Of a stretch of 64,000 nucleotides of DNA, positions 8,801 through 61,512 are shown in pieces (positions within the stretch are counted from its first letter, which is position 1; each line of letters begins with the position of its first letter). The notes beneath the pieces are model-generated. The model did not search any database and had not been told where the DNA came from. It saw only the letters and a program-made list of their open reading frames with translations. Source of the DNA: a virus (lineage: Duplodnaviria > Caudoviricetes); IMG/VR virus record IMGVR_UViG_3300028048_000080, positions 32,001-96,000 of that record; one strand, 5' to 3'. The position numbers were made by a program, and so were the translations under genes.

Positions 8801-11320
8801 ATATACGCTGAATGGAATCTCGATAAAACGGTTGGCAAACATGTTGCTGGCTTCTTCTTCTGAAGCGTTGATTAACGGTGCCATGTTGCCACGCAAATTC
8901 TTGATAACGTCGCCCTTATTCACCCCTTTTATCTTTACGGCCACACCGAAAGTTACTTTATTGCTCGCATTATCTTTACGATAAAAGATAGAGCAACCTT
9001 CTACGTTAGGATTCTTTTCAAGCGTTTCTTTAATTTGCGAGCAAAAATCCGTGACGATTTTGCCGGCATCTTGTCCGTCATCAGTAACTAAGGCACTATT
9101 GGGAGGAATATAACTAGTGAAATCACTATACCCCTTATTCATATCGGCATGAATGCCAGCCAAAGCTTTATGGGCGTCCCCCTGAAGAAATTCAGAGGAA
9201 CGCAAAAGCTTCTTTAGATCTTGAGCTACTTCTCCGATATTATGAATGACTTCGTTAGACTCTGGCGTGAACTGAATAGCGTACGACAAATTACGTTCAC
9301 GATCTTTTTTACTAGCCAGCATCTTGTCCAGATAATTGGCGTCCGCAATGAAGAACTTCATGCCGCTGTTTTCAAAGAGCATTGGCTGAAATGCCGTCCG
9401 CTGTTTAAGAGCTTCAATCATATACTCTTTCGTATTGATATCGTAGCCTACTCCGCGGAGTTTGTCGCCAGCCATTAAAGCCCTTTGATAATAGTAGCGC
9501 ATGGTTTTCCAGTTAAATGCTATCGCGAATGGATTGCTTACATCCATTTGCATGCCTAACAGAGCCACTTCAGGAATATAAGCCTCGTAGTTAAACTCAC
9601 GTAAGTAGAGATTAACCTGCATGAGCTGAGGCATACCAGGGACCGTATTGATATTGATGGTTTCAAACATTACGGCCTTGATACCCAACACTTCGTTCAG
9701 GTAAGTATTTTCGATAGGCAAGAACGGTGTGAAGTGAAATTGAGAAATAAGTGCGCGCAAACCGTTAATGGAGTATTCCATCTTAGTGCCATTGGGCGCC
9801 GTTTCAGTAATCTTATATCCGTTAATCCCGTCGTTATGAGAAAAGAATATAGACATCTGAATCGTGCGGATGCTATATTTCGAGCCGACAGGCATTGAAC
9901 CGCGAGCACGCAAAATAGGCATAGAATCATTTACGCTGGAGTTCTGCACCGTAATGCTAGTAGGCGGAATCATTAGGGTCGTGTCGCCGATGGTTACCGT
10001 CCAATCTTGCAGTTCGTTCCAACTCTTGCCGAGAACCTTTTGTTGAATCTTTTTACGGTCATCCAGTTCGTCCCATGTTCTGAAATACCCGTCAGCTACG
10101 GCCGTCTGTTCGGGGTCGTAGTTATTTTTGAATACTTTCTTATCCGAACCGCCGGTGAAATTCTTATCGACGTCAGCATGCGTATTTTCTTTATCGGCTA
10201 TTAAAGCCTTAGCAAGGTTAACCCATTTGCCGTCAACTTTAATATACGCCGTGCCGGACAAACTGCCCGCATGAATCTGGCGTAGGAGACGATAACCACA
10301 GTTGGGATTGTCGTCGCTGCTCCACTCTTTTAATTGTTTTACGGCCTCGGGGTCATGTTCAGCCATCTCTTTCAAATCGTTTTCGGGCGAACTAGCATAT
10401 CCGTCTAACATAACGTATACGTCTTTTTGGGTAAGACGATTGATGAATGCGGTCGCCGCTTCAGGATTTCCTTCTCCGGTAGCGGGAGCCATTACCCATT
10501 TAAAAGATCTGGTATCGCCATCTTCGTTGGTGGGAATGTACTGATGATATCTGCCACCGATTTTGACGAATTTATAGATTTCTCCGTCCTTAGGTTCTCG
10601 CGCGCAAACATAAAGTCCCGGCTTCGCATCTATCGTATCTTTACCAGCTTCAACCAAAGTTAAGCTGGACGCGGGAACATTCTCCTCGAAAGCCATACGA
10701 GAAGCTACGGGACAATTTATGCCGTATAAAGATATGGTTACGTAATCATTATCTTTCATCGTGCCGCATGGCGTTCCTCTATGTTTGATGGTGTTAGCGT
10801 AAGTCCCCTCTTCGCCATTACCATTTAAAGCGTCGAGGCGCACACGAAGAGTTTTACCGTTGAACCAATTGCCTTCGTGCCCCGGTTCATCCGTAGTTAC
10901 CTTAAAGAAGTAATGACCGTTATTGTCAGTTCCGGGGGTGTCAAAAGCGGGCGCTTCCGTATAGAAGACGGCTTTCTTCCCGTCGCCCTTCTTGGCTTCA
11001 GCATCTTCGACTTTTTCGATGTCACCGCGCAACATATGATCGAGCTTACGCAAGTACATGTCATCCACGCCACCAAGATAGAAATCGCCCATGTTGGGCG
11101 TATCAAACATCTCCTGGGGGATAGCGTAGTGCTGAAGATTCTCCGCTGAATTTCTATCAGCGTATGCTAAGGCTTCAGCAGATATAGCTTGTCTCGTTTG
11201 CGCTTGCTGCATTTCCCACATTTTACGTTTTGTTTCACTATCGCTTACCGCATTTTGTGCTAGAGCATTGGCTCCGGCAGCCTGCAGTTGTGTATTTGAA
11301 TTTGACAGGTTCTCAACCAA
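2831..11320 (-). CDS. Giant (2829 aa) baseplate hub-like tail protein with degenerate SNase-like N-terminal domain
   Basis: Hub-like segments (ADTANIVLTN, LRAGARIHLRAGYG..LPIIFNGSIAEI, GDLVILGDTSVKPHDRISIND..VKEVVHHMSLENGFITTI). TTG start with GGGAGGG RBS; position in tail module. Confidence 0.6.
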   Translation of the reverse strand: MVENLSNSNTQLQAAGANALAQNAVSDSETKRKMWEMQQAQTRQAISAEALAYADRNSAENLQHYAIPQEMFDTPNMGDFYLGGVDDMYLRKLDHMLRGDIEKVEDAEAKKGDGKKAVFYTEAPAFDTPGTDNNGHYFFKVTTDEPGHEGNWFNGKTLRVRLDALNGNGEEGTYANTIKHRGTPCGTMKDNDYVTISLYGINCPVASRMAFEENVPASSLTLVEAGKDTIDAKPGLYVCAREPKDGEIYKFVKIGGRYHQYIPTNEDGDTRSFKWVMAPATGEGNPEAATAFINRLTQKDVYVMLDGYASSPENDLKEMAEHDPEAVKQLKEWSSDDNPNCGYRLLRQIHAGSLSGTAYIKVDGKWVNLAKALIADKENTHADVDKNFTGGSDKKVFKNNYDPEQTAVADGYFRTWDELDDRKKIQQKVLGKSWNELQDWTVTIGDTTLMIPPTSITVQNSSVNDSMPILRARGSMPVGSKYSIRTIQMSIFFSHNDGINGYKITETAPNGTKMEYSINGLRALISQFHFTPFLPIENTYLNEVLGIKAVMFETININTVPGMPQLMQVNLYLREFNYEAYIPEVALLGMQMDVSNPFAIAFNWKTMRYYYQRALMAGDKLRGVGYDINTKEYMIEALKQRTAFQPMLFENSGMKFFIADANYLDKMLASKKDRERNLSYAIQFTPESNEVIHNIGEVAQDLKKLLRSSEFLQGDAHKALAGIHADMNKGYSDFTSYIPPNSALVTDDGQDAGKIVTDFCSQIKETLEKNPNVEGCSIFYRKDNASNKVTFGVAVKIKGVNKGDVIKNLRGNMAPLINASEEEASNMFANRFIEIPFSVYPDPEKNSQEHVYDRLDTSRPEARVWDYALNTLQNSPRVKNDGSGEASTDGWMKAPLIAQLDNMRFRPIDTGVFHITSISASLRNTFSNVHLQESGKSCAQFLGGQDIEFNVSIMTTDKNAVKMIESMPDYATMMMRKYRQIIPCYPIKVDSEFTRFLGVSEVMIDNVTVNTVDNHPGTYQINLIMKSMDRTLRNRESAEMIQANNGGYRASSFADDIADWAQGKKNRADVYQAKKMKSYFEIETAISHAELYPDLELPTLAEMSTLGYDFIRYKFQDNRTYVDPDFYFVYLTRLSSQILRETIINSVQAGIDGTRTLTDASGAQYSMSPAELKGFDLIAANSEAKRQTEFAKAALNSQYELNAKGLSENLRDKSRVGAAVEDYDAWEINNDIRVVFMENRYKKEAESYDARKKADDAKDSFEQPHVDATNDTSQVKATDDTTQVKSTDDTTQVKATDDTSQVPGTQKGRTMPEGAWVIGQLANANTAAEKIAKYLTDVPITLEAPKESACRNSYFDKKQSDQDLKPSFDSVKADIRLGVGAFLSTPEVIEIFELLNIDRTEAFRSITEDIVFAAACSASGSKEYSSKKKAIDWMPSPDYMGVKVPVGTQNMAQAASASTLAEAIEEASMFGAFNIRQYTPEEFLQVTGENPVDVWSDEEKEKSPLNASRYLLDRYYRYQPVDTIRLYKQGCINSPKYCAFAYMRNMLYWLRRLILKRALPSINGDILRKVTKAEGEIRKAEERNKIPASQADAELRDHMTFFTKNAYAIDAGKMWVCSMLALSDGNKMLRDRIDKRDYRGLNEYLHGVSVPSTPVSPDDKLSTGMRKSNLALAGVGRQENKIASGVRPSAPSSRKVQQMDNQLYIKAADDPKQYMMHSCHDMIVYDARGRMLRAFPTYYMMLIDEGRELGSYKLHDNFYNSTNILSFDVIKDRKNPADTANIVLTNIYQSETTEEDTRLRAKESSAYDVFRSMFSPSTLGEDEEEKRTRTSGVLDQLNLRAGARIHLRAGYGSNAAMLPIIFNGSIAEINAEATINIVAQGDGVELTNPIMEEMEGHEIGQDAKWLSNGNNPKDIINDMLTTEGGWIARTLKNFGRPDLLGDNPYGIYHFGDKDFKDIIASGEPTQNIFDALPTPVWDEESDGGALFDQAPSISFDVFGKSPWDVINICRSVMPDFIAAVAPFDFRSTVFVGAPRYYYAYSYMSTSGVIREKRKPFQQFHVYSSACDIIGNGITATSQNMKTTATGLYQVAATANNKEQHKVGPLYADFDIYPENQKSMIVDTQLYAKGVPYIGACGLNFLTSFEIVDELFSNDEDNSCWNPNLTGGHNMNAKSIAWRMTASALKDSMKEMYAGDLVILGDTSVKPHDRISINDTYTGISGQCTVKEVVHHMSLENGFITTISPDCINTVQDKSEAASHHWYDMSAITWATHTAVVGNILRIWKSGATKASDAAALKQVGQKFFGSTIAKAESLAAKNSVAAGAWNLAKAGGKLVPKAAGMAVSAGEKLLTKLATRAAAGALIGSVVGPLGTGAGLISGAALAIAETVVIETVGNLVTNLFKKHARNLQVITLYPLKRYGRAWVAGIAGTKGMVYGTPSFGDNGPYTKIFNGMTGIEAPGKDAQGEALGVNTNDPSMAIANFSAAIFDDPEVWSMAKNSAAHKAGTIDENGDPTMNKDDFNESLRTSFSSPQAGAQLKNDYRAMQMTPRADFSKGNEVLSAYKHFAMLDINKYLTDPKLKNFYLISSDNRLRPYSEEGFFKIIHETPALNEGAYVDSQIMRIRGEETYVKVIKYKLDNGAIVYDVPLLSRDALNILYEIIRRAKNYMPAANSSDPYESYEQTKSSFIALESALRIGDTQSLAAAGHTFILQGVDNAVTPLASAIKDLQDEIKADAEKNGLGETALFDVSVDSTDKTKVAIVVRMAKVSGNGEERGSVEQKSEKTESEDVARREGEDDTDYLIRISEEGQKKDKELGDIVNGSIERQTAE
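7412..7523 (-). repeat. About 4 copies of an in-frame 27-bp repeat (ATDDTTQVK) inside the 2829-aa gene
   Basis: ATNDTSQVK ATDDTTQVK STDDTTQVK ATDDTSQVP in the translation. Confidence 0.9.
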
Positions 11321-11367: not shown

Positions 11368-11386
11368 CGCCATGACACTTAAAACG

Positions 11387-11417
11387 AAAAAGTATCAGCA
11401 CGATACTTTTTCAAAAA
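11387..11417. repeat. 31-bp palindromic element copy 1 (AAAAAGTATC-agcac-GATACTTTTT-CAAAAA)
   Basis: Identical copy at 20351-20381. Confidence 0.9.
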
Positions 11418-11446: not shown

Positions 11447-14400
11447 TTATGCTACGCCGATAGCGTGAGCTACCATACGATTAACTTGTAGCTGAGATAA
11501 ACTGTTGCCTACCGAAGTGCTCAGGTTAACGTTGACTGAACCAGTCTGAGGAGTCAGTCCGCTGGCCGCGTTGGAGATGGCATCCACCGCTGCCTGCTGT
11601 CCTTGGCCAGTTTGAGCGTTAATGTTGATAACGTAGCCTGAGGATGGGCCACCGCGCATTACGTTCAGATTGGAGTCGGATAATGACATCTGCTGCATGG
11701 CAATCTGATCCCCTTGGTCATTAGACATCTGCATCGCCTGAGTCTGAGCCGGAGTAGGAACATCGTGCTCTACCGAGGGGCCGGAAGCGTAGCCGGCAGT
11801 CATGAGCCCGGCAGCTATCCCGATTGCCGCGGCTATAGCTTTTCCTCCGGCTCCGCCGATGGGCGCAATATCGAGCATGCGTCCGAAAGATTTCCCGGCG
11901 CTTTCGGCCGTATCTTGCACTACGGCGCGTCGATAACGAGCGTTACGGTTCCTGGAGGCCGCTTCAGCCATCTGCTGTGCCGCATCTTCAGCGTTCTTAT
12001 GTATCGCCGTTGAAGTAGCGTTATCCAAGTCGTTAAAAGCTCCGCTGACTCCGGCTTCAGCATTCATATCATTTAATACCTGAGCTGTTTTGCCGAGTTG
12101 ACTATCTACCGAGTGACTGGAACGATAATTGAGTGGATCGGAGGCTTTTAAACCTGAGGCAGAAATACCCGTCATTAAAAGTTTTTGTTCTTTCTGGTCG
12201 ATGGTAGTGTTGCGCACGATATCACCAAAAAGCTTAGTGGTATTTTCGATAAGCTCATCGGTGTCGCCAAGCATGGCTGAACGCGGGCCAAATTCCTTTT
12301 TAGCTCTGTCCTTAAATACGCCGCCTACAAATGTTTGAAGAGCACTTGCCGCTTCTTCACGGTTTTCTCCCGTATACATTGCTTTTACGGCATCGCCCCA
12401 TACCTTCTGCAGTTCCTCAGCTCGTTTTAAGTCCGTTTCGCCGCGGGCGTTTTTACCGGTGAGAGCACCTTCCTGTAGAGCCATTAGACCGATAAGAACT
12501 TCGGCGTTTTCTTTACCCGTAAGCTTAGCTTGAGAATGAGCTATACGAGAGAATTCGAATAAGCTCTTATTCATAATACCGGCTGCTTTCTTAGAAGCCG
12601 CTTCGGTAAAACGTTCATCCATGCCCATCTGCCATTTACGATAATGCAGGGCTTCATCAAAGGCGGCGGCTTCTTCTTTGCCGTAGTTTTGAGCTACGAA
12701 GTTACCCATTCGCTGAACATAAAGAGCTTCATCTTTGGCCGCTCCTTTCTCAGCATCCCAGATTTTTTCAAAGTCTTCCGCGTGGCTGGTCTTATAATTT
12801 TCATTCAGCTGATCTAACAGGGCTTTATTGGTTTTTATTTCTTCCTCGGTGTATTTCTTTTCGAAGTTAACCAGTCGGTCACCATCGTAAGTATATTCCG
12901 TAAGGTTGCTAACACCGTAGGAATCATCGGCGATATGTTTCCCGTCTTTCCCCCAGTGAGATTCCTGAGGCTGGCCATACGGCGTAATATCTACCGCGTT
13001 GCGTACCATGCCCGCCTTAGCTTCTATGAAGTTATCATCGAGCAGTTTAACGTTCGTACCTTCCATGGCGCTTAAAGCACGATACGCGGCGAAGTCGACT
13101 TGGGCACGTACGGTGCGTCCATCAGCGTAAGTAATTTCGGCTTCACTCTTACGGATCATCGCGTTGATCTTATCGGAGTCATAGTCACCGTTCTGCTGGC
13201 GGAACGTCTTTAAGTTGGTACGGAATTCATCTCGACCGAGAATATCGCTAAAGTGCATATTGACGGCTTGAACCGGGTCACGAGAAACCAACGGATAACG
13301 CTGATCTACCGCGATAGTACCCTCTTTATCTAATACGCCGAGAGTCTTTTCTTTCAGCTGCTTAGCCAGTTTTTTATCGCCGCCAGCCATCTGCTCGAAC
13401 ATCTCGTCGGAATAGATAGCGTCTCTATGCTGCGTGCTGGCAAATAAGAAGCCGAGATCCATACCACTACCCTTTAAGACAGCATCTTTGGCGTTTCGGA
13501 TGTCGGCCAGTTCAGTGAATGATTTCCCGGAATCAAGGAATTTGGCATTGCCAAAAGCGCCATCTAATCCGTCGCCGAGGAACTGGAACCCCTGTGCCGT
13601 GCCGTACATGGTGCCATCCGAAATAACCGTAGTGGACGCCCGTTTGAACGTGCCGTTTTTATCGGTAGCTTCCTGCGCAACCATCGAACGGAGTTTCTCT
13701 GTCTCACGCATCAGTTCACTGCGCCGCTTCTCGTTAATATCTTGTCCGCCGCCGCGATGATTCTCATACTCGCTCGTGTACTGGTCATGCAGGCGCGTTA
13801 CGCGAGCTACCTGGCGCTGCAGCTCACTCTTACGAGCCGCGCCGGTGCTGTCTTCCTGCTGCAGCGCGGAGAATGGCAAGGCAATGGTGCGGTCACGATC
13901 CGACGTATATATCTGGCCATCTATTAAAGAGTTGGAATGCAAGTCAAGAACAATGGCCTGTCCATACAATGATTCAGCGAATTTATCATCAGTTTTATGG
14001 ATGCGAGCGTTGGTACGGAGGTCGTCGATAGACAAGCTGGTAAAGCCCAGGTTGTTCATTTCTTCCAACGAGTATTTATGACTGCGATTATATTCATGCG
14101 CGTTGGTCGAACTATTAGCTTCGATGAGGTCTAAGACTCTATTGGCGGTAGCATCTTGTACGTTGGACTTCTTCAGAGCATTAATGGCTCTCTGCGCAGT
14201 CTTTTTGTCGACCCCTTGCTCTTTGAGCCATGCCATGCCCTCTTCAGCGGTTTGGGCAGTTTCTCCGTTTTTCAGAATATGCTCAGCCCCTTGTACGCCT
14301 TTCCCCTCGTGAACGAAAGTGTCTTTCATAAAGTCATCGACGAGAGTCTGGTAGGCCAAGTCGCCATCTTTTTTAGACTTGGTAAAATCTTGGATAGCTC

Positions 14401-17400
14401 TTGAGAAGGCCGTGTCGCCGAACGCATCGGATATAGCCGTGGAAGATTTATCTATATAGTCCTTCGTATATACGGTGCTCTTCAAAGCATCAATAGTACG
14501 TTCATCTGCTTTGAAAGTGGATCTGTCTCCAGACTTACCGTAGTTATAGTTAGGCAGGACTCTAACCTGAGTGCGGGCGACTTCGTACATTACGTCGCCA
14601 TATTTGGTGGAAAGCTGGTGCATGGAATCGTGCCAGCCATCTTTGCCGCCAAAATATTTTTCCGTAACTTTGTTTAAGCCTTTAGTGCTAAGATGGCTGT
14701 CGTCAGTTACGAATTCTGCCCATTTTTTACCGTCAGTATCTTCATGGATTTTGATGCCTTTCATGGCACCGTTTTTCTCCATGATGTCCTTGGCTTCTTC
14801 TATGGAAAAACCCTTAAGATCGATTAATCCGTTAAACGTAGCTTCGAATGCGGAAGGGCCACCATGTTTTTTATGACCGGCCGCCGTATGACCGAACATG
14901 TCAATAGCTTCTTTTATGCCTATATCTCTTAGAGCTTCGTCCATAACGGTATTGGTACGGTAACGCTCTTCGAGTAAAGCGGAAGCAAACTTCGCCACAC
15001 CGCCAAAATTCTTGTTAATAATTTCTTCTATCTTGGCGTCGTTAAGAGCTAATAGTCGTTCACGCTTGGCTTTGTCTTTTTCCGCCATCGCTTTGCTGAG
15101 CGTCAGACCATGAACGAAAGCGGCAAATCCCGTACCTTTTACGGTTCCGGTATCAAACAATTCTTGAATAAAGTCGACGTGAATTTGCCGGCCGATAAGC
15201 TTTTCTGCGTTCAGCTCTTTTAATGTGGAAGCGATTTTCTTGTCGACTTCTTGTGAACCTTGGCCAAGCCCGTTCATCAAGACATGGCTCATCTGTTTTT
15301 CGCTATAGTCGGTCAGCTTAGTGTGGCCATCTATATCCAGGCTTTTAACGTAGAAGTCGTGAGAGAACGGCGAATTTTCCTTAGAGAAAAGCGCCCAGGC
15401 AGCCTGCTCGCGCTCAGCCCCCGTAAGAGATTTGTTAATATTCTGGTTGATATAATCGCTTACGGCCTCATCGGTCATTTCTTGACCGTTTTTAAAGATG
15501 CCTGACCTTAAAAGCCCTGTCTGCTTAGCCCTTACGGTTTCGTCTTTATACGTAGCGCTATTAGAAGCTTTAGTAAACAGTTCTTCTCCAGATTCTACGT
15601 ATACGCCTGCGTTCGATTCATAATGGGCCATACCGTCGGCGTCAAAAGTAATTTTGCCCTGAGCTTTCAATAGCTTTTCGAAATTACGGCTATTTTCGAT
15701 ATCGGAGCGGGCAATTTTGCCGAAAGCAACATGCTGTTCAAAATGCTCGGAGGTTAATCCGGCATCTGCGGCGCGGGCCGAAATGGCGCCCGATGCTTCA
15801 TCCGTAAAGATGGACATCATCTGACGATATTCGAAGGAGTCCTCGCCCAGCTTATCGGCAGCATATCGCATTAAGCGGCGCATACTTTCCGAATCAGCGG
15901 AGAGCTTATTGACCACCATGGTGTCGGCAACGTTATGGCCAAGCTTCTCGGAAATAGCATTCATATGCATGTGTTCCTGCATGGATTCGAATGCTGCTCC
16001 AAAACGTACGCCACGGCCTTCCATGATTTTTGCGGCGCGTTCTACATTGAACGGGATGGCCCTATCCATCTTAGTAGAAATATGGTTAAGGTCTTTGTCA
16101 TAGGACATTAATCCGCGATAACTGTCGGATAGAATATTTACCTGACCACGGGTGTCACCGGCATGGCTCAGGATATCCTGAAAAGCGCCTGTGGTGTCGC
16201 CTTCAAAGAGGTCGAGAAATTCTGCGCGCCCAGAGTCAATACTATCGACGATATACGGAGTCAAAATATGCAGTGTGCGCATATATGCTGCCGCGAGAGA
16301 ACTCGATGCATTCTTTAACGAATTGATTTCATCGACTCTTTTAGCGTGTTTAATACCTTCATCGCCGATTTTCTCCAAGTGCTCAATCATGATATCGGCA
16401 GCCTGCGTACCTTCGTCGCGAAGTTTTTGTATTATCTCTTTGCGGTCTTTTTGCCCTATCGTATGTAAAGTTTCGTCTATATTAATAACGTTAGCGAGAT
16501 TACGGTCTTGGCGGTCGCCAAAATAATCAGCTGAGTGCTGCCGATATCTCGCGCTTCGCATTCCGAAAATGCCTGATACTTCTTCGGCAAGATTACCGTT
16601 TTCCCTTCCGCGGTTGAACATGAAGTTCATTAGGTTCTCGCCATCTCTAGCGAGACGACCTTCTTCCGTGGTATAAATTAAAGCGTTGTGCTTGGAAGAA
16701 TAATAGAGGCCTACTTCGTCGCCGAACTCTTGTCCGTTAGCCAGGCGGCGCTTAAAAGTACCGTTGGAAAATACGTTGCGGTCAAGACCGATTACGGTGT
16801 AGTTATTAGCCCTTACATCCTGCGCCGTATTATAGACCCAGAACTGGCCATAATCTTTGTTATAGCCTATAGCGCCGCCGTGAGAATAAATGCCGCCAAT
16901 AATCTGTTCAAGCATTTCTTGGCTGGCGCCGTAGCGGGCACGCTGCATCTTGTAAATCTTACGCGCGTCTCTCTCACTATAACCAGCGGTGTCTACCAGC
17001 TTCTGGATAAACTCCTGCTCTTCTTTTTCGGTTCCTTGCGATACATCGAAGCCGTTATTGAAAACTATGTTTTTATTAATGTCAGAAGCGACGCCCTTGG
17101 CCCAAGCTAGAAAATCCTGCCCTTCCTTGGACTCTTTTTTCCAAACAGGTTTACCGTTTTCAGCAACAGGCTTGAAACTAGTAGCAACCTGAAAATCGAT
17201 GCCGGTAGCTTTGGAACTAACGGCGAGAATCTCATCGTCCGTCAAACCGCCGTTAACCAAGTTGTCGATAATATCGAACTGCTCGGTGGTAGACAATATG
17301 CCAGCCCATACATTACGTTTTCTTCTTTCACGCATTAAATGAGTGATCTTGCCGCCGGCGATAGCAGCAGTGTCGTTTTCAATATCGACGAGATATTCTT

Positions 17401-20329
17401 GCCCGCGACCATCGGCGATGTCATCCAGTTTTATAATCCCTTGATCCAAGAGACGCTGTTGAAAGTTAGCCAAGAGAGTAAGTTTTTCATCTTCTTGAGC
17501 GTGCTCTATTTCGTTAGCGGAACGTCCCATTTGCCGCATCAAAGATTTGACTACGCCGTAATCAGCGTTGATATCGATTGAAGCCATAGTGCTTCCGGAC
17601 AAAGATTTAACCCCGTAGAATCCTTCGATATCCACTTGGAACTTATTCAGTTCGCTGGCAACGCGGGGAAGGACTTGATAACCTGCGCCGGCCTTGCCGA
17701 CTTTTTCTATAGCGGCTTCTTCAAACATATCCCGAATTTCGTGATAAAAGAATTGAGCTCTGTCATCACTTAAGGATATGTCTTTGCCATAATGGTCACG
17801 CACGGCTGTTAAAGAGGCTTTGATTAACCCCTTGTTTGCGCGCGCCCATTTTTCGAGCGACGCCATATTCTCCATCGTGTCGGCATAAGCCTTACGTTGT
17901 CCCGTCTCTTTGTCGATATAGCCAAAGTAGTCCTGAAGAGAACCGTCATATTCATTGAATTTAACTTCTACCCCAGAAAGTTGCTTCTCTTCTATCTCTT
18001 TCGTCTTAGCTTTAACCTTATCACGAAATTCTTGGCGAAGATCTTCAATGGTGCTTTCGTCCGCCTGATTTTTTAAAAGCCCTTTTTCCTTCAGCTTTTC
18101 ATTAACATATTTATCCATGTCGTCGACATACTGCATGAGCCTTTCGTCACGACTGGCAATTTTATCACGAGCTTTGCGCCCGGCAGCATCATTAAACGCT
18201 CTATCAGATATTTCCTCTAAATCTTTGAGAGAAGCTGTCTTGTATTTACGGTTGCCCTCAGCGTCTATAACCACCGTGCTAAGCATGTCCCGATATTCTT
18301 GGGGAACATTTTCCATTAAGAATTCTTTGTCGTTCCCCGTTTTTTTAGCACCCGCTAAGGTGAATAAGTTATTAACGGTATCCATAAGATCCTGATACTT
18401 GCCGACCAGAACGATGTCTCGGTGTGCCGAAGCCAACTTAGATTTGGTGTGCGTAGTCCAGCGCATAGCAAACAAGTCTCCGCCAGCCATATTTTCATGA
18501 TTGGAAAGTATAGGCATTAGCGGGGAATCAGATTCTATCTTGGAAATACCTGAAAGCTCGTATAATCCGCGGCGATGTATACCGGGCGCCTGATAAAGTG
18601 CCCGTGCGCCTCCTTTTTCGCCGATAGCTACGCCGTCAGAAGACCACCACTGGTTAGTGTCTTTGTCGAAAGCGAAAGACATTACGCCATGCTTATGCGG
18701 ATCCCAGGTAGAATTATTAGCGAAGAAAAGCTGCGTACTGTTGCCCTTTAATTTAACGGCGTTTTTGGTAGCTTTTTTAGTGATAAACGAATTAGAGGAG
18801 TTAGGGTCATAGAATCCGCTGCCGAATACTACGCGCATAAGGTCGATGGCATCAGCTTCAGCGATATGGGTTTGACCGCTATGGATAGCTTCCGGCGAAA
18901 GACCTTTTTTAATAGCCGTCGCCGCCAGGATTGTCTGCTGAGTTTTAGGAGTCTCTTTCTGCGTTTTCATCCACTTCATGAGCGAATCCGTCTTGTCCTT
19001 GTCGCCCATGTAATTGCTCCAGAACGTATACGGGTCACCCATGTGTTCTTTAGGAAGAACCATTGCGTCGAGAGCGTTATTAAAATGCAGATGGTCGCCG
19101 CCAAGAATGCTACTCATTTCCTTACGGAATGCTTCAGTAGTTAAATCCTTATTATGCAGGAGATAATCGAGCTGAGGAATATCGAAGCGATTGCCATTAT
19201 AGCTTACTGCCGTAAGGTTATTGGCATAAATGTTACGGATGGCCGAGGCAAGCTCTTTTTCCCATCCGAACATTTCGTTGCCTACGCGGGTCTTTTCTTG
19301 GTACTCGCCGACTTCACGGAGAAGATTAGCGCCCTTAATCATTTCTTCTATCGTGCCGTTCGCGCCAGTTATATCCTTCTGCTCGGAGAAAGAAGAAAAT
19401 CTAACTACACCGTCTTTGGCTTCATCCCAGTTCACGTGCGTATATTTAGCGCCATGCAAAGCGAGACGGTTAAGGGTTACAAGTTCACCTTCTGCCATCT
19501 TTTCGCCACGAGAAAAACGGTCGATGAGGTTAAGCATATTCTTATGCTCTTTGCCGGACAAACCAATAATAGAACCGTAAGTTTTCTTAATATTGAAGTC
19601 GCCCGTCTTAAAATCGCCGAAGCCATCAGAGAAAGAAAACTCGGTAATACGCTGCATCTTATCGTATAACTTATCACCGTGACGACCGAAGGTTTCCAAG
19701 TCGAATGCTACGGCGCGCCCTTTTTGGGCGACGATGTTTTCGACGGCTTTTACTGATTCGTGTGGAGCGCCTTTAGTATAGGGGGTAGTTTTTTGATAGA
19801 TAAAATCGTATCCCGTGGTCTTTCGACTTTTCCCGTAAGTAAAAGCTTTGGAAAAAGTACGCACATTAAGACCCGAATACAATTTAACTAACTGCTCGTC
19901 AATTTTAGGAAATTCACTGAACTTCCTGACGGCTGCGTGTGGAACCACTATAGTAGCGCCTTGCGGTTGAGCTAAGTCAGCTATACGATACGCCAAGAAA
20001 GGAGCTATACTATGGTTTTCTTGCAGAGCAAGTTTTTTCCGCATTCGCTCCAACTCGCCACTGTGTTTTTCTCTCCACCAATTCCGATCTTGATTGTATA
20101 GCCAGACACTATTGTCTAAGTCTTTGATGATATCGGCATCGGCTTCGTCGCCTATATCCTTAAAAAATTTTAAGCTTTCTTGTTGTTCGTGAAAAAGATC
20201 TCTTTCGATGTGTTGTCTAGCATGTTTTCGCTCGTCCATCTTTTTTTGGAACGATTCCGAATTAGTAAATTTATTTAATTCAGCCTGCATACGAGCCTGC
20301 CGTCTTGCGTTGTCGCTGAAAAATGCCAT
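11447..20329 (-). CDS. Giant (2960 aa) putative virion RNA polymerase (two-barrel type) with N-terminal DEDDh 3'-5' exonuclease domain
   Basis: QRYP followed 38 aa later by NGDYDSD (beta-prime-like RxP..DxDxD spacing). Exonuclease motifs AFDLET, YNGNRFD, HIAEAD. Hydrophobic C-terminal helix. Confidence 0.7.
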   Translation of the reverse strand: MAFFSDNARRQARMQAELNKFTNSESFQKKMDERKHARQHIERDLFHEQQESLKFFKDIGDEADADIIKDLDNSVWLYNQDRNWWREKHSGELERMRKKLALQENHSIAPFLAYRIADLAQPQGATIVVPHAAVRKFSEFPKIDEQLVKLYSGLNVRTFSKAFTYGKSRKTTGYDFIYQKTTPYTKGAPHESVKAVENIVAQKGRAVAFDLETFGRHGDKLYDKMQRITEFSFSDGFGDFKTGDFNIKKTYGSIIGLSGKEHKNMLNLIDRFSRGEKMAEGELVTLNRLALHGAKYTHVNWDEAKDGVVRFSSFSEQKDITGANGTIEEMIKGANLLREVGEYQEKTRVGNEMFGWEKELASAIRNIYANNLTAVSYNGNRFDIPQLDYLLHNKDLTTEAFRKEMSSILGGDHLHFNNALDAMVLPKEHMGDPYTFWSNYMGDKDKTDSLMKWMKTQKETPKTQQTILAATAIKKGLSPEAIHSGQTHIAEADAIDLMRVVFGSGFYDPNSSNSFITKKATKNAVKLKGNSTQLFFANNSTWDPHKHGVMSFAFDKDTNQWWSSDGVAIGEKGGARALYQAPGIHRRGLYELSGISKIESDSPLMPILSNHENMAGGDLFAMRWTTHTKSKLASAHRDIVLVGKYQDLMDTVNNLFTLAGAKKTGNDKEFLMENVPQEYRDMLSTVVIDAEGNRKYKTASLKDLEEISDRAFNDAAGRKARDKIASRDERLMQYVDDMDKYVNEKLKEKGLLKNQADESTIEDLRQEFRDKVKAKTKEIEEKQLSGVEVKFNEYDGSLQDYFGYIDKETGQRKAYADTMENMASLEKWARANKGLIKASLTAVRDHYGKDISLSDDRAQFFYHEIRDMFEEAAIEKVGKAGAGYQVLPRVASELNKFQVDIEGFYGVKSLSGSTMASIDINADYGVVKSLMRQMGRSANEIEHAQEDEKLTLLANFQQRLLDQGIIKLDDIADGRGQEYLVDIENDTAAIAGGKITHLMRERRKRNVWAGILSTTEQFDIIDNLVNGGLTDDEILAVSSKATGIDFQVATSFKPVAENGKPVWKKESKEGQDFLAWAKGVASDINKNIVFNNGFDVSQGTEKEEQEFIQKLVDTAGYSERDARKIYKMQRARYGASQEMLEQIIGGIYSHGGAIGYNKDYGQFWVYNTAQDVRANNYTVIGLDRNVFSNGTFKRRLANGQEFGDEVGLYYSSKHNALIYTTEEGRLARDGENLMNFMFNRGRENGNLAEEVSGIFGMRSARYRQHSADYFGDRQDRNLANVINIDETLHTIGQKDRKEIIQKLRDEGTQAADIMIEHLEKIGDEGIKHAKRVDEINSLKNASSSLAAAYMRTLHILTPYIVDSIDSGRAEFLDLFEGDTTGAFQDILSHAGDTRGQVNILSDSYRGLMSYDKDLNHISTKMDRAIPFNVERAAKIMEGRGVRFGAAFESMQEHMHMNAISEKLGHNVADTMVVNKLSADSESMRRLMRYAADKLGEDSFEYRQMMSIFTDEASGAISARAADAGLTSEHFEQHVAFGKIARSDIENSRNFEKLLKAQGKITFDADGMAHYESNAGVYVESGEELFTKASNSATYKDETVRAKQTGLLRSGIFKNGQEMTDEAVSDYINQNINKSLTGAEREQAAWALFSKENSPFSHDFYVKSLDIDGHTKLTDYSEKQMSHVLMNGLGQGSQEVDKKIASTLKELNAEKLIGRQIHVDFIQELFDTGTVKGTGFAAFVHGLTLSKAMAEKDKAKRERLLALNDAKIEEIINKNFGGVAKFASALLEERYRTNTVMDEALRDIGIKEAIDMFGHTAAGHKKHGGPSAFEATFNGLIDLKGFSIEEAKDIMEKNGAMKGIKIHEDTDGKKWAEFVTDDSHLSTKGLNKVTEKYFGGKDGWHDSMHQLSTKYGDVMYEVARTQVRVLPNYNYGKSGDRSTFKADERTIDALKSTVYTKDYIDKSSTAISDAFGDTAFSRAIQDFTKSKKDGDLAYQTLVDDFMKDTFVHEGKGVQGAEHILKNGETAQTAEEGMAWLKEQGVDKKTAQRAINALKKSNVQDATANRVLDLIEANSSTNAHEYNRSHKYSLEEMNNLGFTSLSIDDLRTNARIHKTDDKFAESLYGQAIVLDLHSNSLIDGQIYTSDRDRTIALPFSALQQEDSTGAARKSELQRQVARVTRLHDQYTSEYENHRGGGQDINEKRRSELMRETEKLRSMVAQEATDKNGTFKRASTTVISDGTMYGTAQGFQFLGDGLDGAFGNAKFLDSGKSFTELADIRNAKDAVLKGSGMDLGFLFASTQHRDAIYSDEMFEQMAGGDKKLAKQLKEKTLGVLDKEGTIAVDQRYPLVSRDPVQAVNMHFSDILGRDEFRTNLKTFRQQNGDYDSDKINAMIRKSEAEITYADGRTVRAQVDFAAYRALSAMEGTNVKLLDDNFIEAKAGMVRNAVDITPYGQPQESHWGKDGKHIADDSYGVSNLTEYTYDGDRLVNFEKKYTEEEIKTNKALLDQLNENYKTSHAEDFEKIWDAEKGAAKDEALYVQRMGNFVAQNYGKEEAAAFDEALHYRKWQMGMDERFTEAASKKAAGIMNKSLFEFSRIAHSQAKLTGKENAEVLIGLMALQEGALTGKNARGETDLKRAEELQKVWGDAVKAMYTGENREEAASALQTFVGGVFKDRAKKEFGPRSAMLGDTDELIENTTKLFGDIVRNTTIDQKEQKLLMTGISASGLKASDPLNYRSSHSVDSQLGKTAQVLNDMNAEAGVSGAFNDLDNATSTAIHKNAEDAAQQMAEAASRNRNARYRRAVVQDTAESAGKSFGRMLDIAPIGGAGGKAIAAAIGIAAGLMTAGYASGPSVEHDVPTPAQTQAMQMSNDQGDQIAMQQMSLSDSNLNVMRGGPSSGYVININAQTGQGQQAAVDAISNAASGLTPQTGSVNVNLSTSVGNSLSQLQVNRMVAHAIGVA

Positions 20330-20350
20330 GAAAATATCCCCTCTCTATAC

Positions 20351-20381
20351 AAAAAGTATCAGCACGATACTTTTTCAAAAA
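20351..20381. repeat. 31-bp palindromic element copy 2
   Basis: Identical to 11387-11417; lies in the leader of the 2960-aa gene. Confidence 0.9.
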
Positions 20382-56934: not shown

Positions 56935-57012
56935 ATGCTGAGCAAGCTCAAAGCTATCCTTGAAGTTGTCTGGCTGATAATCGAGATTACCGAGACATTC
57001 TTTAAAGACTGA
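56935..57012 (+). CDS. 25-aa hydrophobic peptide MLSKLKAILEVVWLIIEITETFFKD (type I toxin-like); not in ORF track
   Basis: AAAGGAG RBS, ATG 56935, TGA ending 57012. Confidence 0.5.
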   Translation: MLSKLKAILEVVWLIIEITETFFKD

Positions 57013-57111: not shown

Positions 57112-57138
57112 TTGTTAGTTTTTTAGGAGGCAAAGAAA

Positions 57139-59181
57139 ATGAAAAAGAATCGTTATTTAACCGACGTCAACGCTGTTGTGGAGATGGCTCGCGCCCATAA
57201 GCGCGTAGTCATTTCTAATCAGCAGGATTTTCAGGCGGTTACTCACCGTCTGACATCAAAGGCTGGTAAAATGTTCAGCGTTATGTCGCTGAATTATAAC
57301 CAGTCTACCGGTTGGTTCTCGCCGATGGCGGTGAAAGTTCCGGTTTCACTGGAAACGGCGGAGCTGGAAGGTACGGTGCGCGCCGAAAACGCGCACATCA
57401 ATAGCATCACTATGATGCCTATTGAACGATTCTCTCGGGCATACATTAATGTATGCTGCGGCGACAATCCGGACCTTTTAGACTTGCTGTTGCTCGACGG
57501 CAAGATTTATTGCGTCCTGAAAGTGGGCGCCAATGGGAAGAACGTGAAAGAATCGTTCTTCGTTCAGAGCGAAAAGGAAGGCGTTGCTCTGAATATCACC
57601 AATGGCAAGGAATGCCCGTTCACCGCCTTCGATAGGGAAGACGTACACGTACATGTGTACGGGCTTCTCGGGGTGTCTTCTCCCGGCCAGCAGAAACAGG
57701 GGGAAATCTCGCTTTATTGCGAGAATCTGGATGGTTTTGATGCCGTAGACCATCTGGACAACATGACTCACGGCATGTATCGGCTTATCGCCAAGCATTA
57801 TGCTGGGCAGCATGATAAGCTGAAAACCCTGGCACAGATTTCGACCCGTATCAGCCAGTTTAAAGCTGGCATGGTTCGGACGAAACCTATCCAGGGTATT
57901 GCCATCTCTATGTTCAAAGTCAAGGATGTCCTTGACAATGAATGGATGGATGGTCTGCAGCTGTTCTCGGCCGAAGGTGTTGCCCGCGCTTTCAGCGACG
58001 ATCAGTTTACGGTACTTCCGAGTGCCGTGGACGGAGCTGCCGCACAAGCTAGACCTCTTATCGTGAACAAAGGTTTGGGTTTGTGCATGCCGACTCAGTG
58101 CATCTTAACCATCTTAAGAGCGCTGGGGTGTGAGTTTGAATTCCTTGCTCAGGATGAACTCACGGATGAACAGTTTAAGAGCTACCAAAAGGCAGTTCTT
58201 AAAAAGTCCGGCGACTACAAGGGCAAAACGCTGGTTATTCTTCCGACTTTCAAGAAGGAAGATGGCAGCATTATGAGCGACGAAGAGAAACTCATGCATA
58301 TCGATGCGTGGGTGGATCTGAACGTACACAAAACTGTGTGCGATATTCGCCGCCCATTCACGGGATTCAATGTCATGGGCTTTGACCATGGCAAGAAAAC
58401 CGTGGAGGAGGAAGCCAATACCTCCAATCAGTTATTGGCATCTGCGCTGTACGCTGATACTCCGCGTACTCTTGAGTATATGCTCAATTGCACGAAGAAA
58501 GAGGCAGACAGCATTATGGCTAATGCCGTCCGCATGGATGGCCGGCGCCTGACAGCTAAAGACCTCTTAGGGGATTTGGCTATGGCTTCGCAGACAGCTT
58601 ATCCAGAATTTGCCGTGCGCCATTGGGCGCCGTACTTCCAGGATAATCTGAATAAGGCCCTGGAAGGATTCGGTACGCGTCTTGAGAAACTGTCAGTTTC
58701 CACTGACGGTATCTATCTTAAGATTATTCCGGATCTTAGCCATTTCTTCGGTATCAACCTTCTCCAGTACGATGCCGAAGAGGGGGTATGCGAAGTGTTA
58801 GCACCGCAGCTTTCGAAAGAAGGCAAACGGCGCGCAATCGCTATCAAATACCCGAAGATGGCGACGGACGAATTCGCCAAGATTATTCCGGTTGCTCCGG
58901 AAGACTTGGTAGAACGTGCTCGCTACCATCTGGAGAATGGGGAAATCACCGAGGAACAGTTCGATGTACTGCAGCATCTGTTCTATATGCTTCATGACGG
59001 TATCATCATGGTGCCGGCTATCGAAGAATTGAAGAATATGCTTGCGGGCATGGACTTCGATGGTGATGCGCTTGTTGCTTATTGTGATGAGACTTTGGTC
59101 GACATCATTTGGGCAATCAAACCCGTGGCAACTACTATTATGAAGGATAAAGACTTCGCCGTCTTTCAAGCTTCAAATTAA
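57139..59181 (+). CDS. YonO/QDE-1-like two-barrel RNA polymerase, N-terminal catalytic subunit
   Basis: MDGLQLFS, AQARP..NKG, KYP and LAGMDFDGD (DFDGD at 59053-59067). Confidence 0.8.
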   Translation: MKKNRYLTDVNAVVEMARAHKRVVISNQQDFQAVTHRLTSKAGKMFSVMSLNYNQSTGWFSPMAVKVPVSLETAELEGTVRAENAHINSITMMPIERFSRAYINVCCGDNPDLLDLLLLDGKIYCVLKVGANGKNVKESFFVQSEKEGVALNITNGKECPFTAFDREDVHVHVYGLLGVSSPGQQKQGEISLYCENLDGFDAVDHLDNMTHGMYRLIAKHYAGQHDKLKTLAQISTRISQFKAGMVRTKPIQGIAISMFKVKDVLDNEWMDGLQLFSAEGVARAFSDDQFTVLPSAVDGAAAQARPLIVNKGLGLCMPTQCILTILRALGCEFEFLAQDELTDEQFKSYQKAVLKKSGDYKGKTLVILPTFKKEDGSIMSDEEKLMHIDAWVDLNVHKTVCDIRRPFTGFNVMGFDHGKKTVEEEANTSNQLLASALYADTPRTLEYMLNCTKKEADSIMANAVRMDGRRLTAKDLLGDLAMASQTAYPEFAVRHWAPYFQDNLNKALEGFGTRLEKLSVSTDGIYLKIIPDLSHFFGINLLQYDAEEGVCEVLAPQLSKEGKRRAIAIKYPKMATDEFAKIIPVAPEDLVERARYHLENGEITEEQFDVLQHLFYMLHDGIIMVPAIEELKNMLAGMDFDGDALVAYCDETLVDIIWAIKPVATTIMKDKDFAVFQASN

Positions 59182-59249
59182 GTTGTCAATGCCGTATGTA
59201 CAGAAAGCCCCCGATTATGCGGGGGCTAATTGTTTAGGAGGAGTCTATT

Positions 59250-61436
59250 ATGGAAAAGAAAGTTATCAATGCCCTGAATGCTATCGTTACCGGCAAAAAC
59301 TACCCCATCGATGAACGGGTAGTTTGGACGTATTTCTATACGTACCAGAAAAAACAGATTGACCCGGTTGGGATGGTTACGAAAGATTTCTGGCCATTTC
59401 AAGCCATTATGTACGCTGTTGATATGTACAAGATGGTGCAGAGCTGGGAAGAGTCCCCGGCAAAGACGGCTTGGCTCAAAGAGTTGAGCATGTCTTTGGA
59501 CATCGCTTTTAAGTGGCTCAGAAATGAGCTGCTCGTCGGTACGGAATACACTGACAAGAAAAGCAATTACAAAGTATTCCGCGCACCCATCTCCGAGAAA
59601 GAGATGACCGGCGCTCCGAAAGTGAGCGCCATCTGCGTACGCGCTGGCCGCAAGGCCATTAACCGTGCGCGCAAAATGTTCTTTGCGCCGCTGAGCCAGC
59701 AGGAAATGGCTAAGAGCCATGAGCTTAGCGAAGAAGAACTCCTGACCTTGGATAATGTCATGGCATTCTGCAAGGTCATGGAAAAAGTGGGTCGTATGAG
59801 CCAGGAAGGCACTATCGACTCCACCAAGAGCGGTGACGCTCCGAAAATCCTGCAGTACGTCGTCAAGACGGAAGCAGGGAAGAACGGACTCCGTGAGGTA
59901 ACCCTTATGGAGGCTCTTAGCCGTGTCAGCTTGCTTAGCCGTAAATCCGAGAAGTTTGGCGTACAGCTGAACTTCGAAGCAGGCGAAGTCGAGGTTAATC
60001 ATAATAAACGTATCTCTTATCAGGAGAAGAAACGTTACGTGATTGCCGATATGTTGGATAAAATCCGCATTAACGGCCTCGACAACGCTATTCCGGCCGA
60101 TGTATCGGAGAAGGTATTCGCCGTAAAGCAGGCACTCTCCGATGAGCAGATGGCGATCTGCAGCCGTCTTGCTGAACAAGGTGTATACGCAGACGCTATT
60201 CGTGTTCTTATGAACATTTATCGCAACCTGCGTGATACCCAGAAAGCAGATATGCGTCAGGCAATCAAGGATGCCGGCAAGAATGAGGAAGCTCAGAAAG
60301 CCGGTATTGCCGTAGCCAAGGAACAGACCAAGGTAGCGTACAATGCGCTGTCCAATACGGTGCGTTCCCTGGTGAAAGGTATGAGCCATGAACAGCTCAT
60401 TCAGCTCGTACTTGGAGTAACGTTCAAGTATATGGGCAAGGACGCAAAACGTCCGAGCTCTTTCGCCGGGATTATCCTGGCCGAGGAGTTCTTCGAATAC
60501 ATCATGAGCTTGTATTCGGAAAACGAGGAATTCGCACTTACCCGCGATGAACTCGCTGCGTGCGACGCAGAGGACGGAGAAGTGGTAGAGTTTGTCGGCG
60601 GCGTAGTACCTGGTCGTGCTATCTTCTCTCAGGAGAGAAACGCTATCCCCGATGGCGTGTACACCGTTCGTAAGAATGGCAAACATGCTTGGGTAGAGGC
60701 CAGTGTACGTGATCGTATCGAAGCTCGTTTAAACGATGCTTATAATCCGGAAGAACTCATCTTCCAGACTGGTACGATTGCCACCGAGAAAGAAGCCGAT
60801 GCTCTGCTGGATGCTATTAACGGCGCCAACGAGGTAGTTCTCGCTTCTCGGATGCATAATCCGAATGGTGGCAAAGATCTCTTCGACGTAGTTTTAGCTG
60901 ACGGCAAAGCTGTCGCTCATTATCAGACCAAGGTGAAGAACATGGTCAAGAACGATAAGGGCGAATTGGTAGCCAACAAGGTCAACGGCAAAGACGATTA
61001 TACGATTTCGCAGGCTCTTCGTAAGTTCTACTCCGGTAAAACTGGCGAGGTTGCGTTCGCGCATAAGCTGTCTTTCGGCGAAGGCAATAAGACTCAGTAT
61101 GCCGTCATCGTAGTACTGAAAGGTACTAAGCAGATGCGCGCCAATGCTGTAGTTAAAGCTGCCGCCGAAGCCGTTGTTAGCGCCGATTTCGGAGTAGAGA
61201 AGAAAGCTGCTCCTAAAGCGTCCGTTAATAGCCGTCTTGCCGCTCTTAAGGCAAAGGCTGCGGACAGTGAAAAGGAAGAAGCTCCTGCTCAGCCCGAAGA
61301 AGCAGAAGAAGCTCCTCAGCTTACCTTAATGCAGCGCCTGATGGCGAAACGCAACAAGGTAGCCGAGAAGCCCGTTACTGATAAGAAGCCCAGCCGACTC
61401 GCTCGCCTGCGCAAAGCTGGTGCTGACATTCAGTAA
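59250..61436 (+). CDS. Probable second (C-terminal) subunit of the split YonO-like RNA polymerase
   Basis: PVGMVT and SQEGTIDSTKSG resemble the G.IS and AVD..KTG motifs that follow DxDGD in this family; own AGGAGG RBS. Confidence 0.6.
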   Translation: MEKKVINALNAIVTGKNYPIDERVVWTYFYTYQKKQIDPVGMVTKDFWPFQAIMYAVDMYKMVQSWEESPAKTAWLKELSMSLDIAFKWLRNELLVGTEYTDKKSNYKVFRAPISEKEMTGAPKVSAICVRAGRKAINRARKMFFAPLSQQEMAKSHELSEEELLTLDNVMAFCKVMEKVGRMSQEGTIDSTKSGDAPKILQYVVKTEAGKNGLREVTLMEALSRVSLLSRKSEKFGVQLNFEAGEVEVNHNKRISYQEKKRYVIADMLDKIRINGLDNAIPADVSEKVFAVKQALSDEQMAICSRLAEQGVYADAIRVLMNIYRNLRDTQKADMRQAIKDAGKNEEAQKAGIAVAKEQTKVAYNALSNTVRSLVKGMSHEQLIQLVLGVTFKYMGKDAKRPSSFAGIILAEEFFEYIMSLYSENEEFALTRDELAACDAEDGEVVEFVGGVVPGRAIFSQERNAIPDGVYTVRKNGKHAWVEASVRDRIEARLNDAYNPEELIFQTGTIATEKEADALLDAINGANEVVLASRMHNPNGGKDLFDVVLADGKAVAHYQTKVKNMVKNDKGELVANKVNGKDDYTISQALRKFYSGKTGEVAFAHKLSFGEGNKTQYAVIVVLKGTKQMRANAVVKAAAEAVVSADFGVEKKAAPKASVNSRLAALKAKAADSEKEEAPAQPEEAEEAPQLTLMQRLMAKRNKVAEKPVTDKKPSRLARLRKAGADIQ

Positions 61437-61512
61437 TATCATTATATGCCCTGGCAGACGGCCTGTAAATAGTCTGCCTTATTTTTATGTCTATTTTTAG
61501 GAGGTATTTTAT

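Follow-up and report, generated by a model that had tools for sequence, protein, structure and literature searches.

The stretch of DNA analysed here (the window) comprises 64,000 nucleotides (nt) and corresponds to bases 32001-96000 of the 124,580-nt IMG/VR virus record IMGVR_UViG_3300028048_000080, which is ~54% complete (CheckV). On its plus strand lie two adjacent genes, open reading frame (ORF) 1 and ORF2, which are listed with their signals and motifs in Table 1. They probably encode the two subunits of one two-barrel RNA polymerase (RNAP), belonging to the branch of QDE-1 and the RDR proteins, YonO, crAss gp66 and P23-45 gp64. ORF1 would supply the whole metal-binding centre, with D271, R305 and K311 in barrel B and K570-x-P572 and D639/D641/D643 in barrel A. 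ORF2 would supply the post-catalytic part, i.e., a bridge-helix-like helix with the TIDxxK motif, a helical clamp/head and C-terminal β-rich domains. An earlier note, made from the sequence, had proposed a polymerase of the YonO/QDE-1 kind split into two genes. Its ORF coordinates, lengths and 68-nt spacer are exact, and both the spacer hairpin and the separate AGGAGG preceding ORF2 were found.

Table 1. Genes, signals and motifs at the ORF1-ORF2 locus (window positions; amino acids, aa)
Feature	Position	Strand	Remarks
AGGAGG ribosome-binding site of ORF1	57125-57130	+	8 nt upstream of ATG; read directly
ORF1	57139-59181	+	680 aa; putative catalytic subunit: N-terminal domain, barrel B, connector helices, barrel A with metal-binding loop
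Barrel-B active-site residues D271-G272, Q303-x-R305...K311	57949-58074	+	counterparts of QDE-1 D709, R738, K743
K570-Y-P572	58846-58854	+	R-x-P counterpart in barrel A (QDE-1 R962, P964)
D639-F-D641-G-D643, catalytic metal-binding loop	59053-59067	+	no variation in 79/79 relatives
Intercistronic spacer	59182-59249	+	68 nt; ORF1 and ORF2 in different frames
GC-rich hairpin AGCCCCCG/CGGGGGCT	59206-59227	+	8 pairs, 7 of them G-C; weak T-tract after it
AGGAGG ribosome-binding site of ORF2	59236-59241	+	8 nt upstream of ATG; read directly
ORF2	59250-61436	+	728 aa; putative second subunit, homologous to the C-terminal halves of fused relatives
Parts of ORF2			N-terminal helices, bridge-helix-like helix, helical 'head/clamp' region, β-rich C-terminal domains, disordered charged tail (~650-728)
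Long helix, ORF2 161-194, ending in TIDSTKSG	59730-59834	+	probable bridge helix, from motif, position and predicted complex
Hairpin GGCAGAC...GTCTGCC followed by TTATTTTTAT	61453-61478	+	behind the stop codon of ORF2; resembles a terminator at the end of the gene pair; read directly

The catalytic half in ORF1

ORF1 is a member of the two-barrel (double-psi β-barrel, DPBB) RNAP superfamily and is nearest to QDE-1/RDR, as judged by its fold, its active-site residues and the order of its motifs. These motifs are DGLQLFS (271-277), QARPLIVNKG (303-312), KYP (570-572) and GMDFDGD (637-643), after the last Asp of which the protein continues for 37 residues. Like the ORF2 motifs discussed below, they lie where the earlier note had placed them, and their conservation across 79 relatives excludes chance. 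Down to ~20% identity, none of these relatives varies in D271, G272, Q303, R305, K311, G637, D639, D641 or D643, and the DxDxD loop was found in nearly all of 150 listed cluster representatives of the family. P572 is kept in 75 of the 79 relatives. The Lys that the earlier note had singled out as a replacement of the usual Arg of RxP is indeed present, but it is the majority state of the family (58 of the 79 have K, 17 have R) rather than a property of this gene. Eight residues have been reported to be invariant across two-barrel RNAPs, being D709, R738, K743, R962, P964 and D1007/1009/1011 in QDE-1 (Ruprich-Robert and Thuriaux, PMC2919709). ORF1 has all eight in order, namely D271, R305, K311, K570 (conservative for Arg), P572 and D639/D641/D643.

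ORF1 has no match in Pfam, PHROG or PDB sequence searches. Its AlphaFold2 (AF2) model, built on the alignment of the 79 relatives, has a predicted local distance difference test score (pLDDT) of 93.6 and a predicted template modelling score of 0.90. In a Foldseek search of this model against the PDB, QDE-1 was matched at E 3.8e-11 (7y7s_A) and Arabidopsis and maize RDR2 at E 8e-8 to 6e-6, each with a probability of 1.00 and with ~700-780 aligned columns for QDE-1/RDR2. The virion RNAP gp66 of phi14:2, a phage of the crAss-like kind, followed (6vr4, E 1.3e-4, probability 1.00), as did a Thermus-phage gp64-type RNAP (8f72, E 1.3e-2, likewise with a high probability). Beyond these, the search gave no other significant match; a designed DPBB (7dvh) also matches the model, with a probability of 0.96. 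The match to solved two-barrel members supports the presence of two DPBB domains facing each other. Among the BFVD models, proteins that come from uncultured phages and bear the name 'RNA-dependent RNA polymerase' rank first (E 2e-14). Further down stand a 1218-aa protein, which by its accession series we take to be the YonO-like protein of Bacillus phage 0305phi8-36, and then segments of crAss RNAPs and P23-45 gp64. ORF1 contains both barrels and stops ~20 residues beyond the last strand of barrel A; the model lacks a bridge helix and ends in a 10-residue helix.

ORF2 and the predicted assembly of the two chains

In ORF2, the motifs are VGMVT (40-44) and TIDSTKSG (188-195, with DSTKSG at 59817-59834). 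Within the ORF2 family, G41, R182, E186 and D190 are invariant and K193 almost so. No match to ORF2 was found in Pfam, PHROG or PDB sequence searches, and its AF2 model has a pLDDT of 81.5. The identity of ORF2 follows from its relatives: it is homologous to, and collinear with, the C-terminal half of single-chain relatives of 1200-1500 aa, in agreement with the earlier assignment of ORF2 to the post-catalytic half. A profile of ORF2 homologues matches, in each of the four distant split loci, the ORF that lies downstream (E 3e-104 to 4e-20), as well as residues ~770-1370 of the fused proteins P0061, P0062, P0065, P0053 and P0087 (E 3e-27 to 4e-14), for instance at 776-1171 of P0061 (E 3e-27) and 845-1371 of P0062. 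Conversely, in a profile made from ORF1 homologues and long forms, ORF1 is matched at positions 2-666 and ORF2 at 695-933. Pairwise BLASTP likewise gave collinear matches without overlap. P0061 and P0062, which are nested among split relatives, are each a single table-11 ORF on their own contig.

The bridge helix has been reported to be conserved across all two-barrel RNAPs that were compared structurally. Because of this, and because the ORF1 model lacks one, helix 161-194 of ORF2 is read as the probable bridge helix. Since ORF2 by itself has no significant structural match, this assignment draws on the motif, on its position and on the contacts in the predicted complex.

A separate observation concerns ORF2 ~502-626 (60753-61127). 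Of the top 50 VIA-align rows for the ORF2 model, six are assembly-platform subunits of RNAPs, i.e., archaeal L, AC19, plastid and bacterial α, and NRPD3 (Z 5.2-6.2, root-mean-square deviation (rmsd) 2.0-4.5, 52-65 residues). This region could represent a common small α/β fold or an α/Rpb11-like module fused to the polymerase.

For ORF1 250-680 together with ORF2 1-450, complex prediction gave a score of 0.85, with 0.00 for the best of three controls. Of 80 solved complexes, 58 reach the mark for this score, as do 2 of 110 mismatched pairs; this calibration is approximate here, since own alignments were used. The runs agreed in at least 86% of the contacts, with a partner pLDDT of at least 75. 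In the predicted complex, the ORF1 tail (661-680) is paired with ORF2 115-132, the ORF1 connector helices (430-464 and 497-518) lie against ORF2 helices 40-62 and 268-292, and ORF2 175-186 contacts ORF1 543-551, 572-578 and 628-634, adjoining the catalytic loop. The two chains would be held together by the C-terminal strand of ORF1 (664-668), which adds onto a β-hairpin of ORF2 (115-129), and by packing of the same connector helices on the same two ORF2 helices. As QDE-1 and RDR2 structures have been solved, the score may reflect likeness to single-chain relatives. The prediction supports assembly of the two proteins without being proof of it, and it favours the heterodimer with a break after the catalytic loop that the earlier note had put forward.

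ORF1 might instead be a self-sufficient minimal polymerase, with ORF2 as an accessory factor for promoter specificity or processivity that became fused to it in some lineages. ORF1 alone has every catalytic residue and both barrels, ORF2 alone lacks a significant fold match, and the virion RNAP of P23-45 functions without a clamp (10.1101/2022.12.01.518664). Nevertheless, we consider this very unlikely: ORF1 lacks the bridge helix reported in all two-barrel RNAPs compared, ORF2 carries TIDxxK, which in YonO is on the same chain 84 aa after DNDGD, ORF2 homologues stand beside ORF1 homologues in seven of the seven loci examined, and ORF2 175-186 is predicted to lie against the catalytic-loop region.

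Split and fused forms across the family

The split is real and conserved. Roughly half of the members of a large metagenomic family show it, with repeated changes between the split and the fused state. An exhaustive profile search with ORF1 homologues yielded 251 cluster representatives (clusters at 50% identity). Among the 136 near-full-length ones, the length of the tail after DxDxD is bimodal, with 29-108 aa in 67, 450-800 aa in 61 and only 8 in between. The split state was scored by protein length in this comparison, and the downstream partner was confirmed in seven loci. Besides the ORF1-ORF2 locus, these are L001, L003, L004, L005, L006 and L007, in which ORF1-like proteins of 696, 707, 680, 679, 700 and 687 aa (57, 54, 42, 30, 24 and 28% identity to ORF1, respectively) are followed by adjacent ORF2-like proteins of 737, 701, 639, 655, 546 and 655 aa. 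The check suggested in the earlier note, to look for the same split in relatives, thus has a positive outcome in all six. In one of them, a 58-aa ORF lies between the two halves. Throughout the seven loci, even at 24% identity, the two ORFs stay separate, and each of them is provided with a start and a Shine-Dalgarno (SD) site.

The region from stop over spacer to start is spanned with 0 gaps by contigs X3, X4 and X6, which stem from three independent rumen studies, and no indels are listed between 59063 and 59330 in the contigs that bridge the junction. Of the 40 best-supported natural substitutions, 20 lie in each ORF; 18 of those in ORF1 and 15 of those in ORF2, 33 altogether, fall in codon position 3 of the gene's own frame. 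This bias in each own frame means that both ORFs are maintained as coding sequences; both genes are conserved and under purifying selection. That an assembly error, a frameshift or a nonsense mutation produced the split, as an artefact or by the recent decay of one gene into a pseudogene, is extremely improbable. Single-chain relatives of 1200-1500 aa do exist, but against such an origin stand the seven independent loci with their separate starts and SD sites, the 67 split-length representatives with tails clustered at 29-108 aa, the junction-spanning contigs of three studies without indels, the third-position bias in both frames and the position of the window protein in a well-supported clade of split members only (see below). 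The claim that no sequencing artefact is involved therefore stands, as independent assemblies show no continuous ORF either.

Two other explanations were rejected by inspection. An intein or a programmed frameshift does not fit, as the 37-residue tail of ORF1 and the N-terminus of ORF2 are both homologous to continuous sequence of the fused relatives. The 68 nt of the spacer, which contain a stop and a separate SD-ATG, are far too short for an intron or intein.

An unrooted maximum-likelihood tree (LG+G4, quick search), computed from 136 rows that cover the region homologous to ORF1, places the window protein within a 14-member clade that is entirely split (support 100). This clade is nested in a 64-member group (support 96), in which 58 members are split, 4 are fused and 2 intermediate; in the other half of the tree, fused forms prevail (48, against 8 split ones). 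The tree requires at least 10 changes between the split and the fused state, the starred branches forcing 9-12. Because the tree is unrooted, fission and fusion are not separable on it. To our knowledge, all outgroup enzymes are single chains, and for this reason fission is likelier to have been the first event.

A tblastn search of 50,697 GenBank phage records with four diverse members of the family, P0001, P0052, P0063 and P0082, gave no match, a search of IMG/VR with the alignment of close relatives gave no confirmed relative, and a word-indexed search with the ORF2 alignment gave no further relatives.

The intercistronic hairpin is conserved by position and not by sequence: in five of the six lineages that were folded, a hairpin of unrelated sequence, usually with a T-run after it, occupies the same position. 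It may tune the ratio of the two subunits or stabilise the upstream message. The hairpin behind ORF2 was skipped by the hairpin scan, since its loop is longer than the scan permits.

Known polymerases, function and phage context

Compared with QDE-1 and RDR2 (PDB 2J7N, 7Y7P-T, 7W84, 7ROZ; PF05183), ORF1 has the same succession of barrel B, connector and barrel A, and it also shares the invariant residues (D, R, K, R/K-x-P) as well as the DxDGD loop. The differences are that QDE-1 and RDR2 are single chains of ~1000-1400 aa and here there are two (680 and 728 aa), that sequence identity is ~11%, that the genes are in a phage and the template is probably DNA, and that ~140 additional residues separate the catalytic loop from the TIDxxK motif. 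For ORF2, the best long match, a weak one, falls in the post-catalytic portion of maize RDR2. The presence of both barrels and the post-catalytic head in a single polypeptide, a trait of the eukaryote-type RNA-dependent RNA polymerases (RdRPs), is replaced here by two genes.

The actual sequence of YonO (Bacillus prophage SPbeta, 839 aa) contains all five motifs in identical order: DG at 249, R-x-P-x-x-KG at 266-273, RSP at 492, DNDGD at 535 and, in the same chain, TIDFAKT at 623. This agrees with the motif order that the earlier note had given for single-chain YonO. Both enzymes are phage-encoded, and transcription of phage genes is the presumed role of both (PMC5467207). YonO differs in being one, much shorter chain, with R where the ORF1 family mostly has K. 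The description as YonO/QDE-1-like holds for the QDE-1/RDR-like fold and the YonO motif order; kinship in sequence is not demonstrable by hhalign or by a match to PF05183, and relatedness to YonO and the Pfam RdRPs is visible only in fold class and motif order.

Several results weigh against the assignment of ORF1 and ORF2 to one polymerase of this branch with a role in phage transcription. Firstly, when family profiles were compared with YonO by hhalign, the outcome was not significant (probability 2.6%, with E 0.017, and 1.1%); the first of these alignments is collinear over the catalytic region, with DFDGD on DNDGD and KYP on RSP. Secondly, PF05183 has no match in ORF1 or ORF2 at E<=1 or in the whole record at E<=10, and faint sub-threshold matches in two fused relatives only (E 0.066 and 0.097). 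Thirdly, Foldseek with the ORF2 model alone returned nothing at E<=0.001. VIA-align of ORF2 with maize RDR2 856-1112 reached Z 6.5 (rmsd 7.0, 238 residues), and the wide search with the model gave rows at Z<=6.7 only, in both cases tied with generic helical bundles. Lastly, no promoter motif was found within the window, and other transcription genes may exist, since the record is ~54% complete.

Other phage enzymes of the branch are single chains as well. Of crAss phi14:2 gp66 and P23-45 gp64/gp96, both gp66 and gp96 belong to giant virion proteins; the pair described here is split and lies in a non-structural cluster. In the multisubunit branch, cyanobacterial β' (rpoC1/rpoC2) and the β' of either RNAP of phiKZ/AR9-type jumbo phages come in two pieces, with the break immediately behind barrel A (PMC7598289). 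The architectural seam is the same here, between barrel A and the probable bridge helix. However, those enzymes belong to the β/β' branch, with the barrels on different subunits, whereas ORF1 carries both barrels and is of the QDE-1/YonO branch. PF00623 has no match at ORF1 or ORF2, its sole sub-threshold match being in the giant ORF of 2960 aa. As the enzymes are from different major branches of the superfamily, the shared seam is convergent. Enzymes of the QDE-1/YonO branch are described as single-subunit in the literature searched, in which no description of a split member was found, most subscription journals being outside its coverage.

The characterised phage members suggest what the pair does. 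YonO is a DNA-dependent RNAP that transcribes phage genes without host factors (PMC5467207), and phi14:2 gp66 and P23-45 gp64/gp96 are DNA-dependent RNAPs for phage genes that do not need host factors either. By analogy, the pair would be a DNA-dependent, host-independent transcriptase of phage genes, a reading in which we have moderate confidence. A polymerase with another task, i.e., an RNA-dependent one like QDE-1/RDR or a primer-making or anti-defence enzyme, is unlikely. The nearest solved folds, QDE-1 and RDR2, are RNA-dependent enzymes and neither a promoter motif nor target genes were identified, but the characterised phage members use DNA templates (YonO, PMC5467207; phi14:2 gp66; P23-45 gp64) and QDE-1 itself has been solved with DNA templates, according to the titles of 7y7s and 7y7r. 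Moreover, no sigma factor, T7-like or β/β' RNAP was seen as another route in the ~54%-complete record, where Sigma70_r2 has no match; the lack of a match to T7-like RNAP (PF00940) is uninformative, since the search control was likewise silent.

The source of the locus is a large uncultured rumen phage. Close relatives are on contigs of 254-260 kb, and the phage is therefore jumbo myovirus-like. The sequencing runs that contain the locus are chiefly bovine and sheep gut metagenomes from many studies, with no RNA runs listed among them. The strong AGGAGG before each gene suggests a host that uses SD initiation. The minus strand of the window carries a structural module with terminase, portal, major head protein, contractile-tail sheath and three giant ORFs (2195-2960 aa), from which the plus-strand non-structural cluster with the polymerase pair diverges at ~55,450. 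Given this position, and given a weak candidate for a virion RNAP, the pair would be made after infection, as a non-virion enzyme.

That candidate is the 2960-aa structural ORF (11447-20329, minus strand), which has a sub-threshold match to Pfam RNA_pol_Rpb1_2 at 13139-13393 (13.1 bits, E 0.0065), where RYP is followed after 38 aa by DYDSD. It is a weak lead towards a virion-packaged two-barrel RNAP like crAss gp66 or P23-45 gp96. With hhalign, the region gave only an 11-residue TIDAxK match to the family profile (probability 0.6%); the ESM Atlas gave no usable match to it, and a PDB sequence search with the three giant ORFs nothing meaningful. In P23-45, the virion RNAP is contained within a giant structural protein and the non-virion RNAP is separate, an arrangement that this phage may share. 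On a wider proposal, the phage would run a host-independent programme with two polymerases of the QDE-1/YonO branch, i.e., the 2960-aa virion RNAP and the heterodimeric non-virion RNAP, the seam after barrel A would be a universal breakable joint, and the hairpin would set the stoichiometry. We regard this proposal as doubtful.

Some further elements were observed in the window and outside it. Directly upstream of ORF1 lies a 25-codon hydrophobic ORF (MLSKLKAILEVVWLIIEITETFFKD; 56935-57012, plus strand) with its own GGAG site, and a promoter-like site near consensus on the minus strand (TGGACA-17-TATAAT, 57111-57083) is oriented towards it. Two of the giant ORFs are followed by identical copies of a palindromic element of ~31 nt (TTTTTGAAAAAGTATC-GTGC-TGATACTTTTT) at 11385-11415 and 20349-20379 (minus strand). 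This exact repeat, for which 0 copies are expected by chance, resembles a bidirectional terminator hairpin; no other repeated intergenic word, and no promoter, was found in the window. In the giant ORF of 2829 aa (2831-11320, minus strand), residues 918-1029 give a near-threshold DUF6046 match (23.3 bits, cut-off 27.4); the remaining two giant ORFs are without any family match. In L012, three copies of a 28-nt motif (~TCGTA..ATAAACCCCTTxATAGCGGG; 291-318, 532-559 and 4439-4466) lie 300-4500 nt past the window end in G-poor intergenic tracts ahead of plus-strand genes, with 0 copies inside the window. The motif is a possible phage promoter or terminator-promoter unit for the split polymerase. 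In L013, from the relative that encodes the fused polymerase P0062, a toxin gene of the BrnT family (PF04365; 7263-7547) lies immediately downstream of the polymerase gene.

Altogether, a kind of polymerase that has been described as single-chain also exists in a two-gene and probably two-subunit form, in an undescribed phage family of 251 clusters for which there is no Pfam or PHROG model. One polypeptide would hold the complete metal centre and the other the bridge helix and the clamp, so that the same catalytic machine comes in two pieces. Annotation pipelines at present leave both genes unnamed, and probably also the way in which many large phages of gut and rumen organise their transcription. 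The family offers a natural system for asking what the post-catalytic half contributes, why the seam after barrel A breaks repeatedly in unrelated polymerase lineages, and how polymerases pass from a single chain to several subunits or back. If the proposal of two polymerases in one phage is true, the family would be a living model of the transition from single-chain to multisubunit enzymes, in which the seam after barrel A has been cut and re-joined many times, independently of the cuts in cyanobacterial and jumbo-phage β'.

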